A DNA stretch of 64,000 nt from Escherichia coli (GTDB taxonomy: Bacteria; Pseudomonadota; Gammaproteobacteria; Enterobacterales; Enterobacteriaceae). Positions within the stretch are counted from its first letter, which is position 1, and each line of letters begins with the position of its first letter. The notes beneath the pieces were generated by a model. The model worked only from the letters and a program-made list of their open reading frames with translations. It had not been told where the DNA came from and made no database searches. The position numbers and the translations under genes are program-made. The stretch is taken from NCBI RefSeq assembly GCF_002854065.1, contig NZ_CP024147.1, one strand, 5' to 3'. Shown here piece by piece: positions 6,524 through 51,045 of this stretch.

Positions 6524-7975
6524 TTAGCACAACGGACGTACAGCTTCGCGCATCCCTTTTTCAAGAATCGCATCCAGGTCATTAGCAACCTGCTCGACCA
6601 GACCAGGCACTTGCGTCAGGTCCTGCTCCCAGTGGTCTTTTTCTGCCAACACAATCGCAACCAGTTCCTGGGTACCGATAACACGGTCACGATGCTGGCT
6701 CCAGAGTTGCTGATAACGTTCCAGCCAGTGTGCATCGTCCTGTACCGGATATGTTTCTCCGTTACGCTCACCGCGATAGAACGCAATCAATGCCGCTAAT
6801 GCGAAAGTAAGGCGCGCCGGAAGTGTGCCGTTTGCCTTCTGCCCTGCCAGTAGCTGCGGCAGGATGCGGGTACGGAACTTGGTCATACCGTTGAGCGCGA
6901 TAGACAGCAGCTGATGCTTGATGTACGGGTTACGGAAACGCCCGGTGACTGCACTGGCGAAAGACTCCAGTTCATCGCGAGGCAAATCCAGAACCGGAAT
7001 AATTTCTTCGTAGATGGCTTTTTCAACGAATGCGCAAATTTCAGCATCGTTCATCGCTTCACCTACGGTATCCAGCCCTGCCTGGAACGCCACCGGCACC
7101 AACGCGGTGTGTGCACCGTTGAGTATTGCCACTTTGCGTTCTTTATACGGTTTAATATCGTCAACAATCAGCACGTTGAGCGGATATTTGTCCAGACGCA
7201 GCTCGGTCGCTAAGGATTTCGGTCCCTGAATCACAAACAGGTAAAAGTGTTCAGCGGTGTCGAGGAAACCATCGTGATAACCCAGTTCTTCTTCCAGTTT
7301 AGCCACTTCATCACGCGGATAACCGGTAACGATACGGTCCACCAGCGTAGAACAGAAGCTGTTAGCCTGATCCAGCCATTGAATAAATGCTTCTGGCAGT
7401 GCCCACTCTTGCGCATAGCGCAGCACCAGTTCACGCAACGCGTCGCCATTGTAGTCGATCAACTCACACGGGATGATGATCCAACCTTTATCCAGCGCAC
7501 CGTTGAAATGGCTAAAACGTTCGAACAGCAGACGGGTCAGTTTTGCCGGATAACTTACCGCTGGCGCGTCATCGAATTTATCGCCCGCATGGTAGCTGAT
7601 ACCCGCTTCGGTGGTGTTAGAGAAAACAAAGCGCATTTCCGGGTTGTGCGCCAGTTTCAGGAATTCATCGTATTCACTGTAGACGCTGATTTCACGATTA
7701 ACAGAGCGAATCAGACGCGCGTCGCTGACCGCTTCCCCCTTTTCATTCAGGCCACGGATAATGGTGGTGTACAGACCATCCTGCGTGCTCAGTGACGGCG
7801 GGAATGAAGTTTCAATCGGACGAACAACGACCACACCAGAATTCAGATCGGTGTGCTCATTCAGGAGATCTATTTGCCAGTCAACAAAGGCGCGCAGGAA
7901 GTTACCTTCACCAAACTGAATGATACGTTCTGGATACTGTGCACCGGGAAAATCGCGACGATTTAGTGTTTTCAC
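6524..7975 (-). CDS. uxaB: altronate oxidoreductase (tagaturonate reductase)
   Basis: 483-aa ORF of the mannitol dehydrogenase family; hexuronate gene context. Confidence 0.9.
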
Positions 7976-14820: not shown

Positions 14821-16011
14821 ATGACAACAAACACTGTTTCCCGCAAAGTGGCGTGGCTACGGGTCGTTACGCTGGCAGTCGCCGCCTTCATCTTCAACAC
14901 CACCGAATTTGTCCCTGTTGGCCTACTCTCTGACATTGCGCAAAGTTTTCACATGCAAACCGCTCAGGTCGGCATTATGTTGACCATTTACGCATGGGTA
15001 GTAGCGCTAATGTCATTGCCTTTTATGCTAATGACCAGCCAGGTTGAACGGCGCAAATTACTGATCTGCCTGTTTGTGGTGTTTATTGCCAGCCACGTAC
15101 TGTCGTTTTTATCGTGGAGCTTTACCGTTCTGGTGATCAGTCGCATTGGTGTGGCTTTTGCACATGCGATTTTCTGGTCGATTACGGCGTCCCTGGCGAT
15201 CCGTATGGCTCCGGCCGGGAAGCGAGCACAGGCATTGAGTTTAATTGCCACAGGTACAGCACTGGCAATGGTATTAGGATTACCTCTCGGGCGCATTGTG
15301 GGGCAGTATTTCGGTTGGCGAATGACCTTCTTCGCGATTGGTATCGGGGCGCTTGTTACCCTTTTGTGCCTGATTAAGTTACTTCCCTTACTGCCCAGTG
15401 AGCATTCCGGTTCATTGAAAAGCCTCCCGCTATTGTTCCGCCGCCCGGCATTGATGAGCATTTATTTGTTAACTGTGGTGGTTGTCACCGCCCATTACAC
15501 GGCATACAGCTATATTGAGCCTTTTGTGCAAAACATTGCGGGATTCAGCGCCAACTTTGCCACGGCATTACTGTTATTACTCGGTGGTGCGGGCATTATT
15601 GGCAGCGTGATTTTCGGGAAACTGGGTAATCAGTATGCGTCTGCGTTGGTGAGTACGGCGATTGCGCTGTTGCTGGTGTGTCTGGCACTGCTGCTACCTG
15701 CGGCGAACAGTGAAATACACCTCGGGGTGCTGAGTATTTTCTGGGGGATCGCGATGATGATCATCGGGCTTGGTATGCAGGTTAAAGTGCTGGCGCTGGC
15801 ACCAGATGCCACCGACGTCGCGATGGCGCTATTCTCCGGGATATTTAATATTGGAATCGGGGCGGGTGCGTTGGTAGGTAATCAGGTGAGTCTGCACTGG
15901 TCAATGTCGATGATTGGTTATGTGGGCGCGGTGCCTGCTTTTGCCGCGTTAATATGGTCAATCATTATATTTCGCCGCTGGCCAGTGACACTCGAAGAAC
16001 AGACGCAATAG
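14821..16011 (+). CDS. ydeA: MFS sugar efflux transporter
   Basis: 396-aa ORF with ~12 predicted TM helices. Confidence 0.85.
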
Positions 16012-20463: not shown

Positions 20464-20559
20464 ATGCTGGGTAATATGAATGTTTTTATGGCAGTACTGG
20501 GAATAATTTTATTTTCTGGTTTTCTGGCCGCGTATTTCAGCCACAAATGGGATGACTAA
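20464..20559 (+). CDS. mgtS: 31-aa small inner-membrane protein (MgtS/YneM-type)
   Basis: ATG CTG GGT AAT ... GAT GAC TAA translates to MLGNMNVFMAVLGIILFSGFLAAYFSHKWDD; too short for the ORF track. Confidence 0.8.
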   Translation: MLGNMNVFMAVLGIILFSGFLAAYFSHKWDD

Positions 20560-20586
20560 TGAACGGAGATAATCCCTCACCTAACC

Positions 20587-20625
20587 GGCCCCTTGTTACA
20601 GTTGTGTACAAGGGGCCTGATTTTT
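20587..20625 (+). terminator. intrinsic terminator after mgtS
   Basis: Stem GGCCCCTTGT/ACAAGGGGCC followed by TGATTTTT. Confidence 0.7.
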
Positions 20626-20635
20626 ATGACGGCGA

Positions 20636-20738
20636 AAAAAAACCGCCAGTAAACCGGCGGTGAATGCTTGCATGGATAGATTTGTGTTTTGCTTTTACGC
20701 TAACAGGCATTTTCCTGCACTGATAACGGATCGTTGAC
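20636..20738 (-). ncRNA. mgrR: candidate PhoP-dependent small RNA (MgrR-like), ~100 nt; ends approximate
   Basis: Minus-strand intrinsic terminator at 20635-20662 (CCGCCGGTTTACTGGCGG then U8) lies ~100 nt downstream of a PhoP-box-like direct repeat at 20768-20784; no ORF; location between mgtS and dgcZ matches the known mgrR locus. Ends are inferred, not mapped. Confidence 0.5.
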
Positions 20739-20767
20739 ACAGTAGCATCAGTTTTCTCAATGAATGT

Positions 20768-32126: not shown

Positions 32127-32702
32127 CTACGGCAGTGCTGGCCATTCAATATCCTGTGCAGTTGACGTATCAACACGGTTCAGCAACACCCGATACTTTT
32201 TCCAGGCTTCCAGCAATGAGGTTTCTTCCTCCGTTGCGATTTCCAGATCTACAGCATCCTGAAGTGGCGCAATATGCTCACTGGCTACCTGCATCAGGCT
32301 GTTTTTTGTTTCTTCCGCCTCCCGGATCCGGAACAGTTTTTCTGCTTCTGCATCTTTCACCCAGGCTGTGCCGTTCCACTTCTGAAACTCCCCTTCCGGC
32401 GATAACCAGGTAACATTTTCCGGTAACGGACCGAGTTCAGAAATAAATAACGCGTCCCCTGACGCTACGTCATAAACCGTTTTACCCCGATGGTCTTCAA
32501 CGAGATGCCACGATGCCTCATCACTGTTGAAAACAGCCACAAAGCCAGCAGGAATATCTGGCGGTGCAATATCGGTACTGTTTGCTGGCAGACCTGTATG
32601 AGGCGGAATATATGCATCACCTTCACCAATAAATTCATTAGTTCCGGCCAGCAGATTATAAATTTTTATGGTCCGTGGTTGTTCACTCATTCTGAATGCC
32701 AT
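32127..32702 (-). CDS. tfaQ: tail fibre assembly protein (Tfa)
   Basis: 191-aa ORF of the lambda Tfa/Mu U type; start overlaps the stop of the upstream tail-fibre fragment. Confidence 0.85.
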
Positions 32703-33271
32703 TATGCAAGCCTCACAATATAGTTAAATGCGATGTTTTTGACGGTGTTTTCCGCGTTACCAGCAGCGTTAACGGTGATGGTGTGTCCATGTGAACCAAT
32801 CGCAACGGAGTGCGTATGAGCACCAATACCGACAGTATGTGCGTGTGCACCTGCGCTTGCAGCAGTGCCGGACAGTGAGTGGGTACTGGTATAATCCCAT
32901 TGAATATTTACACCAGTCGCATAATTTCCGATTGCAACGTAAATATCGTAAGTATCACCAGATGTATTGACCCAGGCAAAATTTGTAAACCCTGCCGATG
33001 TGCGCTGCCATAAAGCACCAGTAATCCCCTTCGGATTACCATTACCTGCACGCAAAACAAGTTCAGATATACCTGCCTGTTGAGGTGAACCGACGTTATA
33101 TCCAGCCCCACCAATCAACGTAATTGAAACAACAGAACTCGCCTGCGGCATGGTTACCGTTGCTAATTTGAACCAACCAGCACCACCGCTGAATGACATT
33201 GTTGTTGAGTTAAGCGTACCAATATCTTTCGGTGTCAGTGTTATATCCGCTGAAAGCGCCTTACCATTCAC
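32702..33271 (-). pseudogene. stfQ: side tail fibre, C-terminal fragment only
   Basis: 189-codon ORF with tail-fibre-tip-like C-terminus ([22 protein letters not shown] repeats); no ATG, in-frame stop 6 codons upstream at 33290-33292. Confidence 0.75.
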
Positions 33272-33275
33272 CTTA

Positions 33276-33401
33276 CGGGCAGAAGGTATTCACGCAGGGA
33301 AAATATCTTTCCCCCTCCGGTGTTCTCACCACGAAGCCGCACGACTCCGCTGGCGCACATCGCCGGGCGTGCGCCAGAATCGCTGATTCTGTCTCTGTCA
33401 T
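33276..33401 (-). pseudogene. N-terminal stub (42 codons) of lambda K-like tail assembly protein
   Basis: Minus-strand translation [38 protein letters not shown] then TFCP-stop; near-identical to the lambda K N-terminus as I recall it, then divergent. Confidence 0.7.
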
Positions 33402-33406
33402 GGGAT

Positions 33407-34105
33407 TCACTGCGAAAGTTTGTTAATGGAAAGGAAGCCGCCAAAGTTGCCGACGTTATTGCGAAACTTACAGCCGCTCAGGCATTTGCTGCATTTATCC
33501 TTCGTGATATCGGACGTCGGCTGATCATATTCATCCGCGACCGCCGGACCGTGATAACCGCACTCATCACCGCGATAGGTCCAGGTGCAGGTGTTGGCCA
33601 GCATGATACGTCCCGGAAAAACGGCACCGTCCGTTTCCGTCGGCGTGGACAGTACAAAAGAGGCACTGACCGCGCTCAGTTCGCTGCACTGCTCGATGCG
33701 CCAGCGGCTGATCACCTCCTGCTCCGGATCGGCGTCACTGTTTCCGTTGACGAAGTTCACCGCATCCAGAAAACGGGCGTAAACCTTACGCCGGACCACC
33801 GTTCCTCCGACCAGACTCTGCAGGTCTTCCGCCATCCCGGTGACCATGCCGTGCAGGTTAGAAACCGTCAGTGTCGGACGGGCAGCACTGCCTTTGCCGT
33901 TCAGTTCAAATCCCGTCCCCTGAATGGGATACGCCTGATACTGTCGCCCCTGCCAGGTGACCGGCTCACCTTTATCGTTCTGCTCATTACAGAAAAAGTA
34001 GCGTTCCCCGCCTACCTCGGTCAGGTCGATTTCCCAGAGCACCACCTGGGCTGACTGAGTGAGGCGTGTCGTCTCATGATGTGTTTCCTGTGGAATATCC
34101 TGCAT
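33407..34105 (-). CDS. minor tail protein L (lambda L homologue)
   Basis: 232 aa, same length as lambda L; position between M and K. Confidence 0.85.
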   Translation of the reverse strand: MQDIPQETHHETTRLTQSAQVVLWEIDLTEVGGERYFFCNEQNDKGEPVTWQGRQYQAYPIQGTGFELNGKGSAARPTLTVSNLHGMVTGMAEDLQSLVGGTVVRRKVYARFLDAVNFVNGNSDADPEQEVISRWRIEQCSELSAVSASFVLSTPTETDGAVFPGRIMLANTCTWTYRGDECGYHGPAVADEYDQPTSDITKDKCSKCLSGCKFRNNVGNFGGFLSINKLSQ

Positions 34106-34114
34106 CAGAGACTC

Positions 34115-34444
34115 CTATGCCACGACCTGTTCAAAATCTGCCGTTATGGTTACCCACAACGCCCCCACGCTTGCCGACCATTTACGACAAACCACCCTGA
34201 TCGGCTTCCAGTCATAAGGTGGCGTCCACTGAAATGCGCGGACGCCACCGTGCCGTTCCAGAAAGGCTTTTAAAGATGGGTGTTCACATTTACGAACACG
34301 TATAGTCACGCTGTAAATCGACAACTGGTTATTCAGTCCCGCCGCACGACGCTGTTCATAACCATCGCCCAGCTTCACTGTCACCACTTTCGGCTCTGAT
34401 ACCACATTCATATCCGGGCGCACTTTCCAGTGAAACGTCTCCAT
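34115..34444 (-). CDS. minor tail protein M (lambda M homologue)
   Basis: 109 aa; METFHWKVRPDMNVVSEPKV... closely resembles lambda M. Confidence 0.85.
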   Translation of the reverse strand: METFHWKVRPDMNVVSEPKVVTVKLGDGYEQRRAAGLNNQLSIYSVTIRVRKCEHPSLKAFLERHGGVRAFQWTPPYDWKPIRVVCRKWSASVGALWVTITADFEQVVA

Positions 34445-36618
34445 TACCGATATGCTCCACTTAACCGACCACCATCACGGGCCTGCTGTTGCATAAAGTC
34501 CGCTGCCGCTTTTTTCCCAAGGTCATAAACCACCTTCAGGGCAGCCGGACCTATCTGCCCGTTCGTGCCATCGTTATTGATCTCGATGTTGTACTGCGGG
34601 GCAAACATCGCCATACCTGAACCACCAATATCCGCCACAACCCCCAGCTTACCGTCAGCACCACGACGCAGTGGCAGAATGGCTTCAGGTCCAGCTTCCC
34701 CCATCACACCCGCGCCTTTTGCAAAAGCAAAAAACGTCGGACGGTTAACCACCGTGCCACTGTAACGACTCAAATCAGCAGACTGATAAATCCCCCCATT
34801 GGCATTCAGGGAAAGGCTGCTGAGATCAAATCCCAGTACACTGCCAATCCCTTTTATCGATTTCATCATGGTTGCCTGCGCCAGGATTTTCGCCATATCT
34901 GACAGCACCGAAGAGGTGAAGGATTTGAAGTTGAGTTTGCCGGTAGTGACAAAAGTTGCCAGGCCATTTCCCATGTTGCTGAAGGCTGATGAGAACACCT
35001 GTTCTGCTGTTCCTGCCGTATTGTCTGCATCCACGGTAAAATCCTGAAATGCACGCAGGACTCCGTTTTTCCAGTTACCCTGCACAACTTCAAGCTGTTG
35101 CCAGTAACGGCGATTCTCATTCAGTTGTCGGTTCAGGCTCTCCGTCAGCGCCTGCTCGGCCTTTCTGTAGTCATCCGTGTTATATGTCCCTTTCTGCTCA
35201 CTATCCCGCCTCAACTGCTCCAGCTGTTGCTGGTATTTCTGGCGAAGACTCAGTTGTACCTGATATCGCTGCCGCTGCTGATCACCCATACCCACCGTGG
35301 CGATATCCAGGTCATGTTGCTGACGCTGAGCGCGCTCTTCTTCAGCCAGTTGACTGGTCAGCTGAATTGTTTTTTTCTTCAGATCGTTGAGTGCCGTCTG
35401 TTTCTGAAGCTCCTGCTGTTTTACATCCAGCAGCGTCAGTGCCTGAATCAGTTCATCTTTACGGGCCAGCACACTCTTTTCATCTGCCGTCAGTTTTTTC
35501 CCGTCCAGATCGCTGATGCGCTGCTGCAGAGCCAGAAGCTGTTTATGCGCTTCTGTCATCTTTTCAGTGGCAATGCCTGCTGACTGTCTTGCAGCAGCAA
35601 TCTGTCCTTCCACCTGTGCCTGTTGCTGACTGTACTGCAGCAATAACCGGGTGGCCTCATCATTACGGGGTTCGCGTGTTTTTTTCTTACCGGATGCCAG
35701 GGCTTTCTCGTAACGTTCATTTTCACGTTGTATCGCCGCATCCCTGACAGCCTGATCGGCGTACTGCATGGCATTAATACGCGCAATTTCACGCTGATGT
35801 CGTGCTGCTTCCGTTTCATTCATCCGGTTCAGTGCAGCATTTTCAGCATTACGGCGTTTCTGTTGCTCCTGATAATTCCGCTCTGCCTGCTCTTTTGCAT
35901 CCTGCAAATCCTTCTGGCGTTTTTTCTCCTGAAGCTCGTTAAGACGCTGCTGATCGTACTCAACCTGAGAAGATGATGCCGTCCAGGGGAGTCTTTTCAC
36001 CCGCGACACTTTCTCCTGTAAAGCGGAAATCTGTTCATCCAGCGAGTCTTCACGACCAATATTCATGGCCGCATCCCAGAAACGACTCCATAAATCAGAC
36101 AGATACTTCAGCGTACTGCCCAGCGCATTGAGGTTATTATCAATATCCGCAGTACGCCGACCGGTTTCCTCTGCCAGTGCAGACATGGCTATCCGTGCCG
36201 CATCACTGGACCGCCCCTGTTCCCCAAGGACGCGTATCTGTTCAAGCTGAGTGGCAGTAAGAAAATGCAGCTCATTGTCCAGAGCCTTCGCGGCATTTAC
36301 AGGATCATCCTTCAGCCGCTTAAACTGATTTATGGTATCGCTGACCGACTGGCCAACCGATCGCTCCATCTGTGCGGCAGCTCTCGCCACCATACGGGAT
36401 GGATCATGAACAGAGTCTGCTGCCTCATGCTTCACACTAAACAGGGCTGGCCCGACATGGTGCAGGGCGTAAACGGGGTTCCCCCTGACAGTCGCAGCCA
36501 CAGGAGTGTTGGCCGCGAGGAGCCGTTTTTTTACTGTGTCCCGGTGAAGCCCAAAGGCCTCAGCGATTTTAAAAACACTCCAGTAATAAGCATCACCGAT
36601 CCCGCTCACATTTGACAT
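34444..36618 (-). CDS. chimeric ORF: Nu1-like terminase small-subunit N-terminal DNA-binding region fused to lambda H-like tail tape measure (central and C-terminal parts)
   Basis: C-terminus INNDGTNGQIGPAALKVVYD...RDGGRLSGAYR matches the lambda H C-terminus; glutamine-rich coiled-coil middle; N-terminal ~100 aa has a Nu1-like winged-HTH pattern; ATG at 36618 has GGAG 6 nt upstream (track ORF extends to 36648). Confidence 0.7.
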   Translation of the reverse strand: MSNVSGIGDAYYWSVFKIAEAFGLHRDTVKKRLLAANTPVAATVRGNPVYALHHVGPALFSVKHEAADSVHDPSRMVARAAAQMERSVGQSVSDTINQFKRLKDDPVNAAKALDNELHFLTATQLEQIRVLGEQGRSSDAARIAMSALAEETGRRTADIDNNLNALGSTLKYLSDLWSRFWDAAMNIGREDSLDEQISALQEKVSRVKRLPWTASSSQVEYDQQRLNELQEKKRQKDLQDAKEQAERNYQEQQKRRNAENAALNRMNETEAARHQREIARINAMQYADQAVRDAAIQRENERYEKALASGKKKTREPRNDEATRLLLQYSQQQAQVEGQIAAARQSAGIATEKMTEAHKQLLALQQRISDLDGKKLTADEKSVLARKDELIQALTLLDVKQQELQKQTALNDLKKKTIQLTSQLAEEERAQRQQHDLDIATVGMGDQQRQRYQVQLSLRQKYQQQLEQLRRDSEQKGTYNTDDYRKAEQALTESLNRQLNENRRYWQQLEVVQGNWKNGVLRAFQDFTVDADNTAGTAEQVFSSAFSNMGNGLATFVTTGKLNFKSFTSSVLSDMAKILAQATMMKSIKGIGSVLGFDLSSLSLNANGGIYQSADLSRYSGTVVNRPTFFAFAKGAGVMGEAGPEAILPLRRGADGKLGVVADIGGSGMAMFAPQYNIEINNDGTNGQIGPAALKVVYDLGKKAAADFMQQQARDGGRLSGAYR

Positions 36619-36798
36619 AAGCAACTCCATCTGGCAGGTGAAAATCATGTTTATTTATATATTTCAATTAATTGCAAACTGGTCTAATGACAGGGAGAAA
36701 AAAATATTGTACAGGTGAAAAGAGAAATAACTTTTAATTATCAATAAATTACCAAACATGCTGCCGCCGCCATGGAAATGCAAAAACTAGCCTTTTTC

Positions 36799-36818
36799 CG
36801 CGACGCTCCCGCCCCGTG
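36799..36818 (-). other. lambda-like cos (cosN-like) sequence ~180 bp upstream of the Nu1-like start
   Basis: Minus strand reads ACGGGGCGGGAGCGTCGCGG, close to the lambda cosN region ACGGGGCGGCGACCTCGCGG as I recall it. Confidence 0.55.
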
Positions 36819-37182
36819 GCAGGGGCCCCCACCGGGAGGACCCGACAGCCTGACAGCCGTGACGAGCATCTGATACAGCGCTTTACATAATGGCATAGGA
36901 ATAATTCAGAAGGACATCACAGCATGCCCACACAAATTAGTGTGAGTGTCCTGTTTCTTCCTACGCACAGGACTGACGAGCATGAGGGGAAAATATGCGA
37001 ACCATAAATGCCTCATCTTCAGCAATGCAGCCGGCATCCGAACAGGACGATATTGTAAATTCACCTAATTACGAGGACATTGCAGTAGTTGAATTGCAGC
37101 TCTGTATTAGCCTGACAGTGACAGAATGCGATACTGACTCTGTCACAGGTGAAATAGTTTGAATGATTAGCAGTTATGGTGC

Positions 37183-37389
37183 TCAGTCAACCACCAGGGA
37201 ATAATCCTTCGAATTCTTATCGTGCTTCACCAACGCTGCCTCAATTGCCCTGAATGCTTCCAGAGACACCTGATGTTCTATACATGCAATTACAACATCC
37301 GGGTAACTCATAGAAATGGTGCTATTAAGCATATTTTTTACACGAATCAGATCCAACGAGAGTTCATCAGCAGATTGTTCTTTATTCAT
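37183..37389 (-). CDS. small uncharacterized prophage protein
   Basis: 68-aa ORF in the AT-rich moron region divergent from ydfO. Confidence 0.5.
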
Positions 37390-37689
37390 TTTGTCGCTCC
37401 ATGCGTTTGCTCGTCATCTAGCGGTTAAAATATTACTTCAAATCTTTCTGCATAAAAGAGGAAAAGTATGAAAGTTTGAGTACATCGACCTTACATACAT
37501 CTGTCGGTTGCATATCCCTCCTGGATGCCAGCAAGGCTCAACTTTGTTACGCAATCAACACTATTCATTAAAAACAGGCTTAATATTTGACATAAATCAT
37601 CAACAAAACACAAAGAGGTCAGACCAGATTGAAACAATAAACACGATAATGCAAACTACGCGCCATCGTATCACATGGAAGGTTAACCA

Positions 37690-38100
37690 ATGGCTCAGGC
37701 TGCCATTTTTAAAGAAATATTCGATCAAGTGCGTAAAGATTTAAACTGTGAATTATTTTATTCTGAGCTAAAACGTCACAATGTCTCACTTTATATTTAC
37801 TATTTAGCCACAGATAATATTCACATTGTGTTAGAAAACGACAACATAGTGTTAGTAAAAGGACTCAAAAAGGTTGTAAATGTTAAATTCTCCAGAAACA
37901 AACATCTTATAGAGACCTCCTATAATAAGTTGAAATCAAAAGAAATCACATTTCAACAATACAGGGATAATCTTGCTAAAGCAGGAGTTTTCCGATGGGT
38001 TACAAATATCCAGGAACACCAAAGATATTACTATGCCTTTGATAACTCATTACTATTTACTGAAAGCATCCAGAAAACTACACAGATCTTACCACGCTAA
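37690..38100 (+). CDS. ydfO: uncharacterized prophage protein (DUF1398, YdfO-like)
   Basis: 136-aa ORF. Confidence 0.7.
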
Positions 38101-38251
38101 ACCATAACGTCCGGCTTCTCTCACTCCTGAGCCGGACTGCATTGGTTTAATAAAAACCATCAACAATTGTGATTTAGATATTCGGAACCATTCAAATATA
38201 ACAAAACCCCGTAAAAACGAGGTTTATGGATAAATTTTATTATTGAATACA

Positions 38252-38425
38252 TCAGATTAAATTAATCTTGACATCATAGCTTTCAAGACCCGTCATTTTT
38301 TCCCGTGCGGTAAACTGAATACTGGTAACTTCTTTCCCGGTCTTTTTCTTAAGTTCAATAATTTTTTTTGTTATATATTCAGAAATATCTGCTTCTGCTT
38401 TTGTTTTTAAGTCTTCAATATTCAT
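38252..38425 (-). CDS. gnsB: 57-aa GnsA/GnsB-family small protein
   Basis: Minus-strand translation MNIEDLKTKAEADISEYITKKIIELKKKTGKEVTSIQFTAREKMTGLESYDVKINLI; too short for the ORF track. Confidence 0.75.
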   Translation of the reverse strand: MNIEDLKTKAEADISEYITKKIIELKKKTGKEVTSIQFTAREKMTGLESYDVKINLI

Positions 38426-38596
38426 CATTTCCTCTTTTAGTCTGTTATGACTTTCCAGTTACACAGTAAATCGATTATATGGTGCAAACGTGTAAAAGAT
38501 AAGATGAAAAATCGCAATAATCAACATACGATAGTCTAAATTTTACACAAACAGACAAAGAGAATTTTCCTGAATTATCAATGCAATAGCATCAAA

Positions 38597-38752
38597 TCAA
38601 CTCAAGAGCCTTATTGCTGCTTCCAGAATTTCTTCTGAAGTAACATGTCGATCCGCGGCTACATAAATGACTTTATGATCTCCGGTCAGAGATGGAAACC
38701 CTGCGGCCATTACAGTAAGGTGTGTTTTTTCGCCATTTGGATATTCACGCAT
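38597..38752 (-). CDS. ynfN: small prophage protein (YnfN-like); start uncertain
   Basis: 51 aa from MREYPNGEK...; the same frame stays open upstream to 38869. Confidence 0.6.
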   Translation of the reverse strand: MREYPNGEKTHLTVMAAGFPSLTGDHKVIYVAADRHVTSEEILEAAIRLLS

Positions 38753-38870
38753 GATGGTGTTAACTCCAGTCATCGCTGGCACTACCACTGCTGGTTCAGA
38801 GTTAAAAAAAACTATGATTTTTTTCATGATGTTACCGTAGTATGTGAGTATCCATCGAATAGACACCAAG

Positions 38871-38905
38871 CAAAAAAGCTCCCGAAGGAGCCTTCATTTT
38901 CACTT
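38871..38905. terminator. bidirectional-looking hairpin (GCTCC-CGAA-GGAGC) flanked by A-run and T-run, ~200 bp downstream of cspI
   Basis: AAAAAAGCTCCCGAAGGAGCCTTCATTTTCACTTTTTT. Confidence 0.55.
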
Positions 38906-39098
38906 TTTTAAATCCAACGACAGACGGCTGGCATTTAAGTATTGTGAAATATTATCAAATGTAATCATCATTGATTTACAAAAGATACATTTTGCCCCGA
39001 AAGGATTCATGTCAGAAACATCAAAAGATGATGTTCTATACTGGGAACCATGACAACACGGGCATCTAAAGTGAATATGGTTTGTAATATTGTCTACC

Positions 39099-39311
39099 TC
39101 AAAGCGCCACTACATGAACAGCGGCAGGACCTTTAGGTCCGTTCTCAATACCAAATTCAACTTCCTGATTCTCAGTTAATGTTTTGAAATCGTTGCTCTG
39201 AATTGCTGAGAAATGGACAAACACATCTTTGCTGCCATCTTTCGGCGTGATGAAACCAAAACCTTTTTCAGGGTTAAACCATTTCACTAAACCAGTCATT
39301 TTGTTAGACAT
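39099..39311 (-). CDS. cspI: CspA-family cold shock protein
   Basis: 70 aa, [23 protein letters not shown]... with RNP1/RNP2 motifs. Confidence 0.9.
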
Positions 39312-39673
39312 AATTATTACCTTTTGAAGAAATTAGCCCTTGGGCAGAATGGTCCGAAAAAAAATATCAGAGAGAAAAACCAACAAGGAAATCCCAAGAG
39401 GTACAAATAATAAAATTATAACAATGACTGCTTCAGATAAATTTGTAACAAACCAGAACACCATTAACGCATGATTAACCACCCATAGCAAGGATTACTT
39501 TTGTAAAGAAAAACACAGCAATGAAAGAATAGCTTTATTTATTAATAAAACGTGTCATTCTGATTAAGACCTTTTATCTTACCCTTAAGATTTCAGGAAT
39601 TTTGGCTCATGGAAGAGTCCTTTTTATTTAAATTTTACATTCCGCGATGTAAATGTTCCGATTTAATATTACC

Positions 39674-40698
<1,025 letters not shown>

Positions 40699-40702
<4 letters not shown>

Positions 40703-41010
40703 AGATATTTATGATGAGGACGCTCGTGCTTATTGGCAGGATTTTCAATCTTAAAGGAGTACTGATGCTGCAGATAAGACTCAACTTTTTCTGACAATTT
40801 TTCTGCTACTTCCAGGAAGACTTGCCGGACGCTCCTTCTGGCTGCTGCCTCATAAAACTCCAGCGCAGCTCCTTCAACACGGTCCATGGCGACATCCAGG
40901 TCAAAAATTTCACCGTCAAAGCGTTCTTTGTCCTGTAAGGCTACAGTTACCGTAACTTTGTTCTCAAAATTACGGACTCCTTTCACAACCAGTTCATAGT
41001 CTTGAGTCAT
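40699..41010 (-). CDS. ydfR: uncharacterized protein encoded between holin and endolysin
   Basis: 103-aa ORF overlapping the endolysin start by 4 nt (ATGA). Confidence 0.7.
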
Positions 41011-41014
41011 TGGA

Positions 41015-41230
41015 TTACTCTCCTCTCGCAGCCTTACGCCTGTCTTCTTTAATCTTGAAATAAAGATTTGTCAGATACGTCAGCAGGCCAAAAACCAGGC
41101 TACCCAGCACACCGATTGCAGCCCACTGTGACGGAGTTACTTTATCGAGTAACTGCAATGCCCAGAAACCAGCATTACCCGCCGATGTGCCATAGGCAAC
41201 ACCTGTTGTTAACTTATCCATTGATTTCAT
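41015..41230 (-). CDS. essQ: S21-type holin (pinholin)
   Basis: 71 aa from [28 protein letters not shown]... with two TM segments; track ORF extends upstream to 41305. Confidence 0.85.
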
Positions 41231-41449
41231 ATCCTCACCCCGATGTACACGGATGGTGCAATATGTTTGAAAAGATCGGAGTCTACGGGGTAGTTTTGAC
41301 AGCACACGCTGTTCTCAACGGCGCTAAAGAAACATACACATTAAAAATGTGAGTAATTATTTTGAAAGAAAGTCATATATAAAATAATAATACGAGAAAT
41401 GTTTTCATATTTAGTGTACTGTATACGGCCATTTATACAGGAAAAGCCT

Positions 41450-41620
41450 ATGTCAGAACGTAAAGACTCAAAATCACGCCGTAATTATCTCGTTAAATGT
41501 TCCTGCCCAAACTGCACCCAAGAGTCAGAACACAGTTTTTCAAGAGTACAAAAAGGTGCCCTTTTGATCTGCCCTCATTGCAACAAAGTATTCCAGACAA
41601 ATCTTAAAGCTGCAGCCTGA
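41450..41620 (+). CDS. 56-aa zinc-ribbon small protein (CPNC-x17-CPHC)
   Basis: ATG at 41450 with AGGAAAAG upstream; two CxxC pairs. Confidence 0.6.
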   Translation: MSERKDSKSRRNYLVKCSCPNCTQESEHSFSRVQKGALLICPHCNKVFQTNLKAAA

Positions 41621-41677
41621 TTGATTTTATTAGTAACAAGTATTTTTTATATTTTAATAATATATTTAAAGTAGATA

Positions 41678-41703
41678 ATAAAAAACCCGCCTGAGCGGGT
41701 TTG
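41678..41703 (-). terminator. minus-strand intrinsic terminator ~280 nt downstream of cspB
   Basis: AACCCGC-CTGA-GCGGGTT with a U-run on the minus strand. Confidence 0.6.
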
Positions 41704-41983
41704 AGATTGTGGTGCTTTTTGTGGGAGTCATCCACTTACGCACTTTGTTTTGCCATGCCAGCAGTTAGCTTCTGCTGTAAAACTATTCATGCCGCAAACC
41801 TGCACTTCACCACAATGGTTAGCATACTTTTCCTGATTAAGATTTTGCCAAATATGCTGGCCATTGTTTCATGTATTGGACCTCCTTAATTTTTATTAAA
41901 GAAATCCAATATTCACTACTCTGTCCGTATCTCTACTCAGGCATCAGCCTTCTTCGTTATCGTATACAGACGAGCGATGAATT

Positions 41984-42199
41984 TTAATCAGTAATGATGA
42001 CATTTGCTGCTGCAGGACCTTTAGCACCACTCTCTATAGAGAAGGTAACCTTTTGACCTTCAAATAAGGTTCGATAATTATCATTCTGAATCGCAGAAAA
42101 ATGCACAAACACATCTTTACTACCATCAACAGGAGAAATAAAGCCGAAACCTTTATCAGCGTTAAACCATTTTACTAAACCAGTCATTTTATTTGACAT
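41984..42199 (-). CDS. cspB: CspA-family cold shock protein
   Basis: 71 aa, [23 protein letters not shown]... Confidence 0.9.
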
Positions 42200-42490
42200 T
42201 CTACATTCCTTAACTTGAGCCTTTCGGCATAAATGGTTTGCATAACAGAAACGACTTCGTACTTAATTGGAGAGACTCAAAGAAGGAATAAGTGAATAAC
42301 ACCTGAAATGAGAACTGCTTTAGTAAACTACTTCGTATATCGTCTGTTCTTCAAACCGACGCAGTCATTAACTCATAGTTGAACATATGAAGCAATGTTT
42401 ATTTTAGACATCCAGCCACCTTCAACCCTATCAAAAAAGTAGTTTTCTCCAGGAACGTGTGTATGGTGCACCAGGTTATCAGTATTAAGG

Positions 42491-42724
42491 AGTTTTTCTG
42501 TCCCCTAAAATGACAGGAATTGTCAAAAACTTTGACTACAAAAGCAGCAAAGGTCTTATATCCCCATCCGATGGCGTATCGATGCCCAGCTTCAGGTTTC
42601 AGCTCTCAATCTTCGAGATGCAGAAGAAATTACCACAGGATTACGCGTGGAATTTTGCCGGATAAATGGTTCGCGTGGACCTTCAACTCCCAATGTTTAT
42701 CCTGGGATGAGATTCAATATCTCT
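42491..42724 (+). pseudogene. cspF: cspF-like cold-shock gene, apparently frameshifted
   Basis: Frame A (ATG 42491) encodes [22 protein letters not shown] then leaves the cold-shock-domain pattern; a second frame from ~42556 encodes ...[20 protein letters not shown] (domain C-terminus) and runs on without the expected stop. Confidence 0.5.
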
Positions 42725-42744
42725 ATTGCCCCATTTAAAGCACA

Positions 42745-42777
42745 AAAACCCGCTTATCAGCGGGTTTTCTACTTTTT
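42745..42777 (+). terminator. intrinsic terminator after the cspF-like gene
   Basis: AAACCCGC-TTATCA-GCGGGTTT followed by a T-rich run. Confidence 0.65.
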
Positions 42778-42874
42778 TCTAAACGTCGGATACACAAAGC
42801 CCATCGTTGAGAAAATCTTATCCATGTTTTTTGAAAAATGCAAACATCATGTCGCCATCTTCAGCAAAAATCAT

Positions 42875-44516
<1,642 letters not shown>

Positions 44517-49174: not shown

Positions 49175-50080
49175 CTATATTTCCAGACATCTGTTATCAC
49201 TTAACCCATTACAAGCCCGCTGCCGCAGATATTCCCGTGGCGAGCGATAACCCAGCGCACTATGCGGATGCCATTCGTTATAATGCTCGAACGCCTCTGC
49301 AAGGTTCTTTGCTGCCGTTAACCCGTCTGGTTTGGGCATGATACTGATGTAGTCACGCTTTATCGTTTTCACGAAGCTCTCTGCTATTCCGTTACTCTCC
49401 GGACTCCGCACCGCCGTGTTCTTCGGTTCAAGTCCCAACATCCGGGCGAACTGGCGTGTTTCATTAGCCCGGTAGCATGAACCATTATCCGTCAGCCACT
49501 CCACTGGAGACGACGGAAGATCGTTGCCGAAGCGGCGTTCCACCGCTCCCAGCATGACGTCCTGTACTGTTTCACTGTTGAAGCCGCCGGTAGTGACCGC
49601 CCAGTGCAGTGCCTCACGATCACAGCAGTCCAGCGCGAACGTGACACGCAGTCTCTCTCCGTTATCACAGCAGAACTCGAACCCGTCAGAGCACCATCGC
49701 TGATTGCTTTCTTTCACGGCCACTCTGCCTGTATGTGCCCGTTTCGATGGCGGTACAGCAGGTTTTCGCTCAAGCAACAGCGCATTCTGGCGCATGATCC
49801 GGTAAACACGTTTGGCATTGATCGCAGGCATACCATCAAGTTCTGCCTGTCTGCGAAGCAGCGCCCATACCCGACGATAACCATACGTGGGCAGCTCTCC
49901 GATAACATGGTGTATACGGAGAAGCACATCCGTATCATCAGTGTGACGACTGCGGCGGCCATCCATCCAGTCATCGGTTCGTCTGAGAATGACGTGCAAC
50001 TGCGCACGCGACACCCGGAGACAACGGCTGACTAAGCTTACTCCCCATCCCCGGGCAATAAGGGCGCGTGCGCTATCCAC
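49175..50080 (-). CDS. insD: IS2 transposase OrfB (InsD-type)
   Basis: 301-aa DDE transposase ORF overlapping insC. Confidence 0.9.
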
Positions 50081-50403
50081 TTTTTTGCCCGTCCATATTC
50101 AACGGCTTCTTTGAGGAGTTCATTTTCCATCGTTTTCTTGCCGAGCAGGCGCTGGAGTTCTTTAATCTGCTTCATGGCGGCAGCAAGTTCAGAGGCAGGA
50201 ACAACCTGTTCTCCGGCGGCGACAGCAGTAAGACTTCCTTCCTGGTATTGCTTACGCCAGAGAAATAACTGGCTGGCTGCTACACCATGTTGCCGGGCAA
50301 CGAGGGAGACCGTCATCCCCGGTTCAAAGCTCTGCTGAACAATTGCGATCTTTTCCTGTGTGGTACGCCGTCTGCGTTTCTCCGGCCCTAAGACATCAAT
50401 CAT
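50038..50403 (-). CDS. insC: IS2 OrfA (InsC-type)
   Basis: [56 protein letters not shown]... Confidence 0.9.
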
Positions 50404-51045
50404 CTGTTCTCCAATGACTAGTCTAAAAACTAGTATTAAGACTATCACTTATTTAAGTGATATTGGTTGTCTGGAGATTCAGGGGGCCAGTCTAATCATA
50501 GCGATATTCCATCTGCATCTGTTTGCTGCTGGCTTTAATCACGAAGCCATTATCATCGGTTTCCCAACTCACCCCGGCAGAAGGTAATTCTGCTAGCTGG
50601 CATTTTCCCTGTAAACGTACTCTCTTCTCCAGCGTCTCGGCATCACGGTAATAATTGGCGTCCAGTACCAGAGCGACCACGGTATTATTTTCCAGATCCA
50701 GTAATTCGAGTGAATCAAAACAGCCTTCTTCCGACAAAGTCCCCGAAACACGTTTCGTCACTTCACCTTGCTCATCCATTAATGTCTGAGTGAAATCTTT
50801 TACCGGACCACGCAGCGGATCAAAATCGAATTCATTAGAGAAACTGGCCATCTCAGGAGTAAATGAAAGTGTTACCTCTGTGCGGTCACATCCTGTGAGT
50901 AATATCGCGAGTAAGCATGGCAGTAATTTGTATTTCACATCAGTCACCAGAGAGTAGAGATGATTCTCAATCATAGTAGCAAATACAGTACTTTACACGT
51001 TAAATGCTATGCTTAAAGAAGTTATCTTCGCGTAAGGAGCTTATG

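Follow-up and report, generated by a model that had tools for sequence, protein, structure and literature searches.

A terminase–tape measure chimera as a deletion scar in a Qin-type prophage of Escherichia coli

A chimeric reading frame in a degraded prophage

Is a long open reading frame (ORF) that couples a terminase-like N-terminus to the C-terminus of a tail tape-measure protein a protein in its own right, or what a deletion left behind? The ORF in question lies in a degraded Qin-type lambdoid prophage with ydfJ as its insertion site, within a 64,000-nucleotide stretch of Escherichia coli contig NZ_CP024147.1 (the window). A mechanical ORF list places it at 36648..34444 on the minus strand (734 aa, counted from the ATG at 36648), identical to the coordinates given in a preliminary description of this DNA, and the peptides quoted there (WSVFKIAEAFGLHRDTVKKRLL..., ...NNDGTNGQIGPAALKVVYD... 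and ...RDGGRLSGAYR) are all found in it. At 2.2 kb the open frame is far longer than expected by chance. Intact homologues start at the ATG at 36618 (MSNVSG...), with GGAG upstream at a 6-nt spacing; sequence features thus make this ATG the likely true start of the chimeric ORF, and its product has the 724 aa that had been claimed for the chimera. L002, an almost intact Qin-type prophage at the same locus in E. coli strain GPEC1446, served as the reference for dissecting the ORF into the following parts.

34444..36618, minus strand: chimeric ORF, 724 aa plus stop, annotated-type start
36391..36618, minus strand: small-terminase (DUF1441 / PHROG 141) codons 1-76, colinear with L002 7386-7614
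36390..36395, minus strand: deletion junction, 6-bp microhomology GTATGG, L002 7609-7614 and 18001-18006
34444..36389, minus strand: tape-measure residues 374-1021 (648 of 1021 aa), 99.97% identical to L002 18001-19952

Parental genes of the two parts

Gene context and curated-family profiles point to a small terminase as the parental gene of the N-terminal part. The PHROG 141 profile 'terminase small subunit' matches ORF residues 6-88 (E 2.6e-16, profile positions 4-81 of 183), and DUF1441, the sole Pfam family for this part, is found at residues 25-87 of the 734-aa ORF, so that the N-terminus is terminase-like and not tape-measure-like. In L002 and in phages cdtI (AB285204) and Tritos (OV696610), the intact 175-aa parental gene lies between a cos-like site and a GpA-family TerL gene. 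The window keeps only the 5' 228 nt of this gene, and the terminase-derived portion spans residues 11-86 of the 734-aa ORF (1-76 of the 724-aa product), shorter than the ~100 residues first proposed. These 76 codons contain the entire predicted winged-helix DNA-binding domain together with a linker.

The N-terminus had been called Nu1-type, a label that its position, family name and predicted fold class support and its sequence does not. Lambda Nu1 showed no significant similarity to it by BLASTP (E 3.5) and reached a probability of 1% in an hhalign comparison with a 39-sequence profile, where the helix-turn-helix regions were the parts aligned; Phage_Nu1 is absent among the Pfam matches of the ORF, and the DUF1441 alignment, run as a profile against PDB sequences, returned nothing significant. 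The Nu1 DNA-binding domain is of the MerR-like winged-helix class. An AF2 model of the intact terminase protein (pLDDT 82) predicts a β-α-α-β-β-α domain (residues 7-60) followed by a low-confidence linker (residues 64-69). Foldseek hits of this model at probabilities of 0.9-1.0 and TM scores of 0.6-0.68 include RacA, MerR-family proteins, BldC, Xis and a DNA-binding domain of a viral packaging motor (7lwr_A); none of the hits has E <= 0.001, and Nu1 is outside the top 50.

The cos-like site that had been placed ~180 bp upstream of the ORF is real, and is predicted to be of the lambda type from its 12-nt end and the conserved flanks that it shares with the genome ends of related phages.

36803..36814, minus strand: cosN-like 12-nt cohesive-end sequence GGGCGGGAGCGT, recognized by its lambda match and by phage record starts

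Of its 12 positions, 8 are identical to the lambda 12-nt end GGGCGGCGACCT, its flanks (ACG before and CGCGG after) are the same as those of lambda, and the deposited cdtI and Tritos genomes begin precisely at this cos-like sequence. The distance from the first cos base to the ATG at 36618 is 196 nt, similar to the 190 nt of lambda, where Nu1 starts at position 191 and the gene order is likewise cos-terS-terL...H-M-L. Unlike the head genes of lambda, those of the intact relative L002 are of the HK97 type, with a protease-capsid fusion.

The remainder of the ORF is tape measure. A predicted lambda-H-type C-terminal domain passes the curated threshold of TIGR01541 (287.7 bits vs a cut-off of 104.75, residues 369-694), Pfam detects TMP_2 (from residue 84), TMP_4 and Tape_meas_lam_C, and the PHROG 24 tape-measure profile covers residues 85-734. 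Residues 205-853 of lambda H align from ORF residue 87 to the C-terminus (24% identity, E 9e-38), and the C-terminal INNDGTNGQIGPAALK motif of lambda H is also present; the preliminary description had set the start of the homology too late, at about residue 125. The full-length tape measure was not kept: its N-terminal 373 of 1021 residues are deleted along with the G, T, V, U and Z genes, while M and L still lie downstream.

A single in-frame deletion across GTATGG

Comparison with L002 accounts for the fusion to the base, and no observation speaks against the resulting anatomy. L002 1292..7614 corresponds to window 42703..36390, and L002 18001..21109 to window 36395..33287 at 99.97% identity. 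GTATGG occurs in both parental genes, and the junction was fixed by exact-match extension from either side. The missing stretch is one block of 10,392 bp that ends in codon 76 of the DUF1441-type small terminase and codon 373 of the 1021-aa tape measure, Met76 of the one being common with Met373 of the other (residue 86 of the 734-aa ORF). Across the junction the protein reads ...HDPSRM|VARAAAQ.... The fusion reads through because both GTATGG copies share codon phase, the block being a multiple of 3. Lost with it were the small-terminase C-terminus and the TerL, portal, protease/capsid, head-tail joining, tail-tube and chaperone genes. The suspected in-frame scar, formed by removal of TerL, portal, head and tail-shaft genes and leaving an open chimera, is therefore demonstrated by the L002 comparison; its junction was misplaced, being at 36395..36390 rather than at ~36250-36350, about 40 residues earlier than guessed. 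Intact tape measures do not share the N-terminus of the chimera, since the 1021-aa protein of the relatives begins differently. One illegitimate recombination event across GTATGG very probably removed the 10,392 bp.

That the junction is an assembly artefact is scarcely credible. Nothing specific speaks for it, the same junction occurs in the independent complete genome of strain 100416, which differs from the window by one SNP within the ORF, and a public NCBI-derived collection contains an identical 724-aa product, from an NCBI contig of 4.64 Mb. Taken with the state of the surrounding prophage, we regard the ORF as very probably a deletion scar in a decaying cryptic Qin-type lambdoid prophage and, functionally, a pseudogene.

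General decay of the prophage

The rest of the prophage contains both intact genes and further damage.

34115..34444, minus strand: intact M-type minor tail protein, 109 aa
33407..34105, minus strand: intact minor tail protein L, 232 aa
33287..33288, minus strand: second deletion junction with a TA overlap, L002 21109 joined to 28254
42875..43255, minus strand: 3' remnant of late antiterminator Q (ydfT type), without about 123 N-terminal codons
43259..44516, plus strand: IS3-family element standing where about 9.5 kb of early region, from the Q N-terminus to intQ, has been replaced

The second deletion joins codon 39 of a K-type peptidase gene out of frame to a tail-fibre gene, at a cost of about 7.1 kb (K, I, J, lom and the tail-fibre N-terminus), and the corresponding site in strain 100416 is annotated as two adjoining RefSeq pseudogenes. 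Window 43258..42700, which carries the Q remnant, matches L002 480..1036 within ydfT 111-863. The flanks of the IS3-family element match positions 14873 and 24374 of the K-12 locus (L004); the element shares 92.8% identity with the second IS in L009, and its counterpart in L001 carries the RefSeq label 'ISEc31 family'. The second, out-of-frame deletion and the IS-truncated Q show general decay of this prophage.

Relatives place this decay in context. The phages cdtI and Tritos and the prophage L002 share the cos site, the upstream region and the small-terminase N-terminus with the window at 97-99% DNA identity, and L002 additionally has in common with it the chromosomal site, the flanking morons cspI, cspB, gnsB, ydfO, pinQ and tfaQ and, at 99.97% identity, the genes for the tape measure, M and L. 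All three have a full late operon, whereas the window lacks 10.4 kb of it, a further 7.1 kb (K to tail fibre) and the early region. The nohA-stfQ junction of K-12 Qin is the same kind of decay at the same locus, where a small terminase abuts a tail-fibre fragment after structural-gene deletion. However, nohA is of the lambda Nu1 type rather than the DUF1441 type, the K-12 deletion has other end points, its remnants overlap out of frame and are not fused, and window 32885-37612 has no K-12 counterpart. A diversity review (PMC6379469) gives sizes between 11 and 97 kb for Qin prophages and is silent on this junction.

A recurrent breakpoint in the terminase linker

As a relic the ORF is ordinary, an instance of textbook prophage decay; what is unusual is that its terminase-side breakpoint is met again in many further strains and is also hit by IS elements. 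Within 18 bp of the breakpoint, at least 10 different deletions (8 of them DNA-verified) and 4 independent IS insertions were found. The left ends of the 8 verified deletions lie at L002 7611-7614 and AGC is never kept, while their right ends are all different, falling in TerL, protease, capsid, tape-measure, J and, three times, tail-fibre genes. Among protein sequences, codons 73-77 account for 17 of 38 breaks. Complete genomes with a hot-spot deletion include those of strains 100416 and PI12 and of the window's strain. Every crossover has TA in common, and the terS-side 30-mer before the breakpoint ends ...TTCATGATCCATCCCGTA.

IS elements occupy the fixed deletion end in sister alleles. In NCTC9064 (L009/L010) an IS911-family element follows L002 7617 with the target duplication AGC, and an ISEc52-family element in L011 sits at the identical nucleotide. 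ISEc23 (IS66 family) in L013/L014 has its left boundary after 7607 and the target duplication ATCCATCC at 7600-7607, and another IS66-family element is inserted after 7614 in L012, both IS66-family insertions thus lying within 10 bp. The clustering of insertions and deletions at the breakpoint suggests, and does not prove, an IS-linked origin.

How might the window deletion have arisen? One account, to which we give somewhat less than an even chance, is that an IS3-family element once occupied the AGC to the right of the junction (L002 7615-7617) and was then lost with this AGC and 10.4 kb, through transposase-dependent excision-with-deletion and microhomology repair; this concerns how the scar formed and leaves its identity the same. 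In IS911-type figure-eight chemistry, the 3'-OH left on the flank lies three nucleotides beyond the IS end. At this site the 3'-OH would be ...GTATGG-3', which is the left edge of the window junction and could prime on the tape-measure GTATGG. The coincidence of two IS3-family elements at one nucleotide and two IS66-family elements close by, the left ends of the verified deletions with AGC absent, and a deletion-causing IS3-family element 7 kb away in the window prophage itself are consistent with such an origin. Against it, the window junction contains no IS remnant, no precursor allele (terS-IS-tape measure) was present among the loci fetched, and 7 of the 8 verified junctions lie at 7611 or 7612, whereas the 3'-OH is predicted 2-3 nt further on, at 7614. 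In its simplest form the IS model therefore fits the window alone. Additionally, insertions and deletions may have a common cause, such as local DNA structure.

An IS origin would also fit the excision literature. The IS-excision-enhancer (IEE), with an IS3-family transposase, is reported to excise IS elements with adjacent deletions of a few nt to >40 kb and 2-6-nt microhomology joints (PMC9943667, citing Kusumoto 2011). The outcome in E. coli O157 resembles the deletions seen here in its fixed IS-site end, its variable other end up to tens of kb away, its joints and the absence of the IS afterwards (Kusumoto 2011; Calvo 2023, PMC9943667). In contrast to IEE excision, no IS is present at the window junction and the left ends at the hot spot lie 1-6 nt outside the IS target duplication.

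We consider it close to an even chance that no IS was involved, and that replication slippage, template switching or another RecA-independent illegitimate recombination joined the two GTATGG copies, with the terS site favoured as donor through local sequence or structure. A clean junction with 6-bp microhomology and without foreign DNA is what such an event would leave; the breakpoint falls within a small inverted repeat (TCCAT-CCCGT-ATGGA) and is followed 20 nt further downstream by a perfect palindrome of 14 bp (GACTGGTACCAGTC), and the TA common to all crossovers also agrees with it. However, the hairpin does not exceed shuffled sequence in stability (z -1.4), slippage across 10 kb on the strength of 2-6 bp of homology would be very inefficient, and four IS insertions clustered at one place are left unexplained.

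Several further causes of the breakpoint were considered, and none is favoured. No AAACC..GGTTT half-sites of Pin/Gin-type invertase quasi-sites were seen by eye at the breakpoint, and the known crossover dinucleotides of these invertases are AA, GA or TC, not TA. Terminase cutting would act at cos, 420 bp off, and protect the wrong end, and RecBCD/Chi cannot keep an end to the nucleotide. There is no IS630-type element present that would account for TA targeting, and no terS alleles were found that pair an identical N-terminus with a different C-domain, as homology-facilitated recombination ending at a mosaic boundary would predict them. Hairpin pausing is not favoured by a local fold no better than shuffles, and the target, judged by eye, resembles the inverted repeats of IS911 or IS66 no more than expected by chance.

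A broader reading, rather unlikely in our judgement, is that the 18-bp linker-coding stretch (L002 7600-7617, window about 36404-36387) attracts IS elements of several families and is where deletions start that repeatedly erode the late operon one-directionally in Qin-type prophages, the window chimera being one product. Whatever its cause, the recurrent breakpoint provides natural, base-resolved nested deletions with one fixed end, beside IS-bearing sister alleles, and this series could be used for testing IS excision and microhomology joining in E. coli prophage domestication.

Function and expression of the chimera

The stronger version of the 18-bp-stretch reading would have the cos-binding domain kept for interference with the packaging of related phages. 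In the window, this would make the chimera a selected functional protein, for example a cos-binding decoy against packaging of superinfecting phages with the same cos, which we judge very unlikely. The breakpoint leaves the winged-helix domain whole and falls right behind it, in the predicted linker; the cos site is kept, and 7 of the 8 DNA-verified hot-spot deletions are in frame at the first junction, as selection might produce. However, the in-frame excess is inflated by ascertainment, and was dropped as a sign of selection because 90% identity clusters merge short out-of-frame products. The fusion partners in sister alleles are unrelated fragments, some a few residues long, and in the alleles with an IS insertion here the protein is truncated. 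The junction was found in 1 of 5,426 complete E. coli genomes (strain 100416), and Q is truncated. The ORF differs from the parental sequences by only 2 nt, and both substitutions are nonsynonymous, with one falling within the helix-turn-helix domain, which also argues against a decoy. Luck (1 in 3) and the youth of the fusion best explain the open frame, which is in itself no sign of function.

The chimera would be unable to package DNA or measure a tail, because TerL, portal, protease/capsid, head-tail joining, tail tube and chaperones are gone. Its main practical importance is as an annotation warning: open, 724 aa long and equipped with a DNA-binding domain, it is mistakable for a novel protein. 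Conversely, RefSeq/PGAP annotates the strain 100416 copy as a tape-measure pseudogene, and the label 'tape measure, missing N-terminus' conceals the fusion.

Expression from the late operon is unlikely because an IS has truncated Q. As a promoter-like site was also not found next to or just upstream of the ORF, transcription of the chimera is probably low.

Two further observations concern expression. The ORF is fully open with a good Shine-Dalgarno sequence, so translation is possible, and Q from another resident lambdoid prophage could act on the late promoter in trans.

Structure of the Terminase-Tape-Measure Junction

The window contains E. coli chromosome around ydfJ with a Qin-type lambdoid prophage remnant (pinQ, tfaQ, cspI, cspB, rrrQ, essD, and others). 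The corresponding prophage of strain GPEC1446 (locus L002, which supplies the reference coordinates) is nearly complete and occupies the same site. Its late genes encode, in order, a DUF1441 protein (175 aa), the large terminase TerL, portal, a ClpP-capsid fusion, head-tail proteins, the tail proteins Z, U, V, G, and T, a tape-measure protein of 1021 aa, and then M, L, K, I, J, lom, tail fibre, tfaQ, and pinQ. Window positions 42703..36390 are colinear with L002 1292..7614, and positions 36395..33287 are colinear with L002 18001..21109 at 99.97% identity. Exact matches extended from both sides overlap by 6 bp, GTATGG, found at L002 7609-7614 and 18001-18006, and the stretch deleted relative to L002 measures 10,392 bp. 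The sequence of the join shows it to be a product of microhomology-mediated illegitimate recombination. The frame remains open because both GTATGG copies share codon phase: the parental terminase (...HDPSRM/EPKERK) and tape measure (...GNDIGM/VARAAAQ) yield ...HDPSRM/VARAAAQ in the window, and the product carries tape-measure residues 374-1021 after terminase residues 1-76. The in-frame deletion scar proposed in the preliminary description is therefore seen directly in the synteny comparison with L002, and its junction (about residue 125, 36250-36350) was placed about 40 residues too far downstream.

The open reading frame and the site upstream of it are as follows.

34444..36648, minus strand: 734-aa chimeric ORF
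36618, minus strand: second in-frame ATG (MSNVSG...), the start used by intact homologues, with GGAG and a 6-nt spacer 5' of it
36814..36803, minus strand: cos-like sequence GGGCGGGAGCGT, flanked by ACG and CGCGG as is lambda GGGCGGCGACCT, with 8 of 12 positions identical

A mechanical ORF list of the window gives the coordinates first described, the peptides quoted with them are present, and the 724-aa length matches the product from the ATG at 36618. The reported cos-like site and its spacing are likewise real, as judged by the lambda-like flanks, by the genome records of phages cdtI and Tritos, which both begin at the start base of this site, and by the distance from site to ATG (196 nt in the window vs 190 nt in lambda). 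In cdtI and Tritos, a gene annotated as small terminase starts at position 185 or 197, with TerL next. The site appears intact within the cryptic prophage, lambda-type and identical to the cdtI and Tritos genome start, and a helper phage of this type may in principle be able to cut the chromosome at 36803-36814 and package from there.

Separate protein searches, as first suggested, find terminase at the N-terminus and tape measure beyond it, in agreement with the junction from L002.

Matches of the 734-aa ORF (ORF residues)
6-88: PHROG 141, terminase small subunit, E 2.6e-16
25-87: Pfam DUF1441, E 4.7e-07
84-139: Pfam TMP_2, E 1.3e-14
85-734: PHROG 24, tape measure, E 2.1e-218
87-734: lambda H residues 205-853, 24% identity, E 9e-38
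329-406: Pfam TMP_4, E 1.7e-17
369-694: TIGR01541, 287.7 bits (cut-off 104.75)
524-598: Pfam Tape_meas_lam_C, E 2.1e-22

Identity of the Small Terminase

Position, family, and predicted fold class make the parental gene the small terminase of its phage type, and it lies outside the Nu1 sequence family. The N-terminus was originally called Nu1-type, a label that stands on those three grounds but fails on sequence: BLASTP aligns lambda Nu1 with the ORF N-terminus at E 3.5, and a 39-sequence DUF1441 profile matches Nu1 with a probability of 1%, the aligned segment being the helix-turn-helix of both proteins. Modelled with AlphaFold (mean pLDDT 82), the intact 175-aa protein has a b-a-a-b-b-a domain (residues 7-60), a low-confidence linker (64-69), and long helices from residue 78 onward. 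Foldseek matches the N-domain to MerR-like winged helices, namely those of RacA, BldC, Xis, MerR-family regulators, and 7lwr_A, a 'viral DNA packaging motor' DNA-binding domain, with probabilities of 0.9-1.0 and no E below 0.001. The DNA-binding domain of Nu1 is reported to have a fold of the MerR-like winged-helix class.

K-12 Qin differs from the window, with its DUF1441 type, in having a true homologue of Nu1, nohA; this gene belongs to another module with another deletion, which abuts stfQ. Window 32885-37612 has no counterpart in K-12 Qin (compared with L004 7069-8970). The two remnants therefore have different packaging modules, with independent deletions at one chromosomal site.

A Recurrent Breakpoint and Insertion Target

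The intact terminase, and likewise its first 75 residues, retrieved many distinct chimeras from the protein collection, all diverging right after ...HDPSR. The retrieved proteins show 38 breaks; 17 fall in codons 73-77, and 10 of these are at codon 75. An 18-bp stretch (L002 7600-7617, window 36387-36404) holds the breakpoints of at least 10 distinct deletions, which run into different late genes; eight are verified in DNA. On the left these eight all end within L002 7611-7614 (...CATCCCGTA[T][GG]), whereas their right ends differ, and TA lies inside every crossover.

Right ends of deletions at the terminase breakpoint
L008: TerL, L002 8188
L007: prohead protease, L002 11859
L017/L018: capsid, L002 13491
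Window and L001 (strain 100416): tape measure, L002 18001
L006: J, L002 25226
L015/L016: tail fibre
L019 (complete genome, strain PI12): tail fibre
L005: tail fibre, L002 29230

Four independent IS insertions occur within the same 18 bp.

IS insertions
After L002 7617: IS911-family element, target duplication AGC (L009/L010; complete genome NCTC9064)
After L002 7617, the same nucleotide: ISEc52-family (IS3-like) element (L011)
L002 7600-7607: ISEc23 (IS66 family), duplication ATCCATCC (L013/L014; complete genome)
After L002 7614: other IS66-type end (L012)

The region is uninterrupted in 739 of the 752 complete genomes that have it; disrupted alleles are rare in absolute terms, yet represent many separate events. 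Wider interest lies only in this recurrent breakpoint and IS target in the terminase gene.

Three further observations concern these sequences. L002 25226, inside J (TATCAG), is a second recurrent end point, a right end common to two different deletion alleles, L006 1967 (joined to the small-terminase gene) and L007 3883 (joined to the protease gene). Intact terminase genes have a perfect palindrome of 14 bp, GACTGGTACCAGTC (L002 7632-7645), 20 nt downstream of the hot spot; the window has lost it. Finally, a small inverted repeat, TCCAT-CCCGT-ATGGA, spans the hot spot, and its fold is no better than that of shuffled sequence.

Possible Origins of the Deletion

Two routes to the window's deletion are rated about equal. 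In IS911 figure-eight formation, the flank 3'-OH lies three nucleotides beyond the IS end; for the observed insertion this would be ...GTATGG-3', which coincides exactly with the left boundary of the junction in the window. In this candidate route, an IS would have inserted at the site and been lost with neighbouring DNA through a microhomology join. IS3-family transposase and IS-excision enhancer are reported to remove an IS with flanking DNA of a few nt to more than 40 kb, the enhancer joining ends via 2-6-nt microhomology (PMC9943667, citing Kusumoto et al. 2011). However, neither an IS trace nor, among the loci compared, a precursor allele was found for the window, and the seven other junctions stop 2-3 nt earlier. 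IS-independent template switching at a locally favoured site has close to an even chance, but the sole local features are a hairpin with a 5-bp stem, no more stable than shuffled sequence, and the palindrome 20 nt away, and the clustering of IS insertions is left unexplained. Also considered as causes of the breakpoint, and rejected, were quasi-sites for an invertase, cutting by terminase, RecBCD/Chi, targeting of the IS630 type, and recombination at a mosaic boundary.

Seven of the eight verified junctions are in frame, an excess that is confounded because clustering conceals short out-of-frame products; for the window's ORF, a 1-in-3 chance is enough to account for the open frame. Selection for the retained DNA-binding domain as a 'cos-binding decoy' is very unlikely, given that the window's allele is almost unique, that sister alleles have arbitrary fusion partners, and that the IS alleles cut the protein short.

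Decay, Expression, and Rarity

Judging by gene content, the chimera would be unable to do either parental job, because the deletion took away the part of the terminase for oligomerisation and TerL binding, TerL itself, every head gene, the tail tube, and the tail chaperones. Two other lesions affect the prophage.

33287-33288: second deletion junction, TA overlap, joining L002 21109 to 28254; K-type peptidase codon 39 is joined out of frame to the tail-fibre gene
43259-44516: IS3-family element, replacing the N-terminal half of Q through intQ

The second deletion (~7.1 kb) removed K, I, J, lom, and the fibre N-terminus; a ~0.6-kb rearrangement in fibre repeats is also present at 32884/32885. 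Within window 42875-44516, the IS3-family element cuts Q down to its C-terminal 126 codons and replaces ~9.5 kb of the K-12 early region (ydfU, rem, hokD, relBE, dicABC, dicF, intQ). With Q missing, the late operon should not be antiterminated, and no promoter-like site adjoining the ORF emerged from a consensus scan. An Rfam match to an isrC-type sRNA lies within the element (43327-43449).

Only two nucleotides of the ORF differ from the parental sequences, which marks the deletion as recent. Both are nonsynonymous: Q53H, in the helix-turn-helix domain, is window-only, and A207V is common to the window and strain 100416. When 5,426 complete E. coli genomes were searched with the region by megablast, thousands proved to have the tape-measure part but only one the whole stretch, strain 100416, which alone matched a 200-bp junction-centred query. 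The exact 724-aa product is also recorded from a 4.64-Mb NCBI contig, and with the 100416 match this shows that the junction is not an assembly artefact. PGAP annotates the 100416 locus as 'phage tail tape measure protein; incomplete; missing N-terminus', and RefSeq already marks the sister strain's locus as a pseudogene. The ORF is a recent deletion scar of an ordinary sort, left in a cryptic prophage, and an instance of a well-known kind.

Other Features of the Window

The Rz-like gene rzpQ (39674-40172) is apparently split into overlapping ORFs of 51 and 123 aa, in agreement with the 'frameshifted' flag in strain 100416. A second insertion element, IS2 type by eye, lies between speG and ynfC (49175-50448) and has two transposase ORFs (136 and 301 aa) that overlap. 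Rfam matches, counted above the gathering score, fall at 20553-20766, 32161-32359, 39072-39457, and 41968-42360 and comprise STnc560 sRNA, 'IS009' RNA (inside or adjoining tfaQ), and, upstream of the cold-shock genes in the prophage, two cspA-type thermoregulator leaders.
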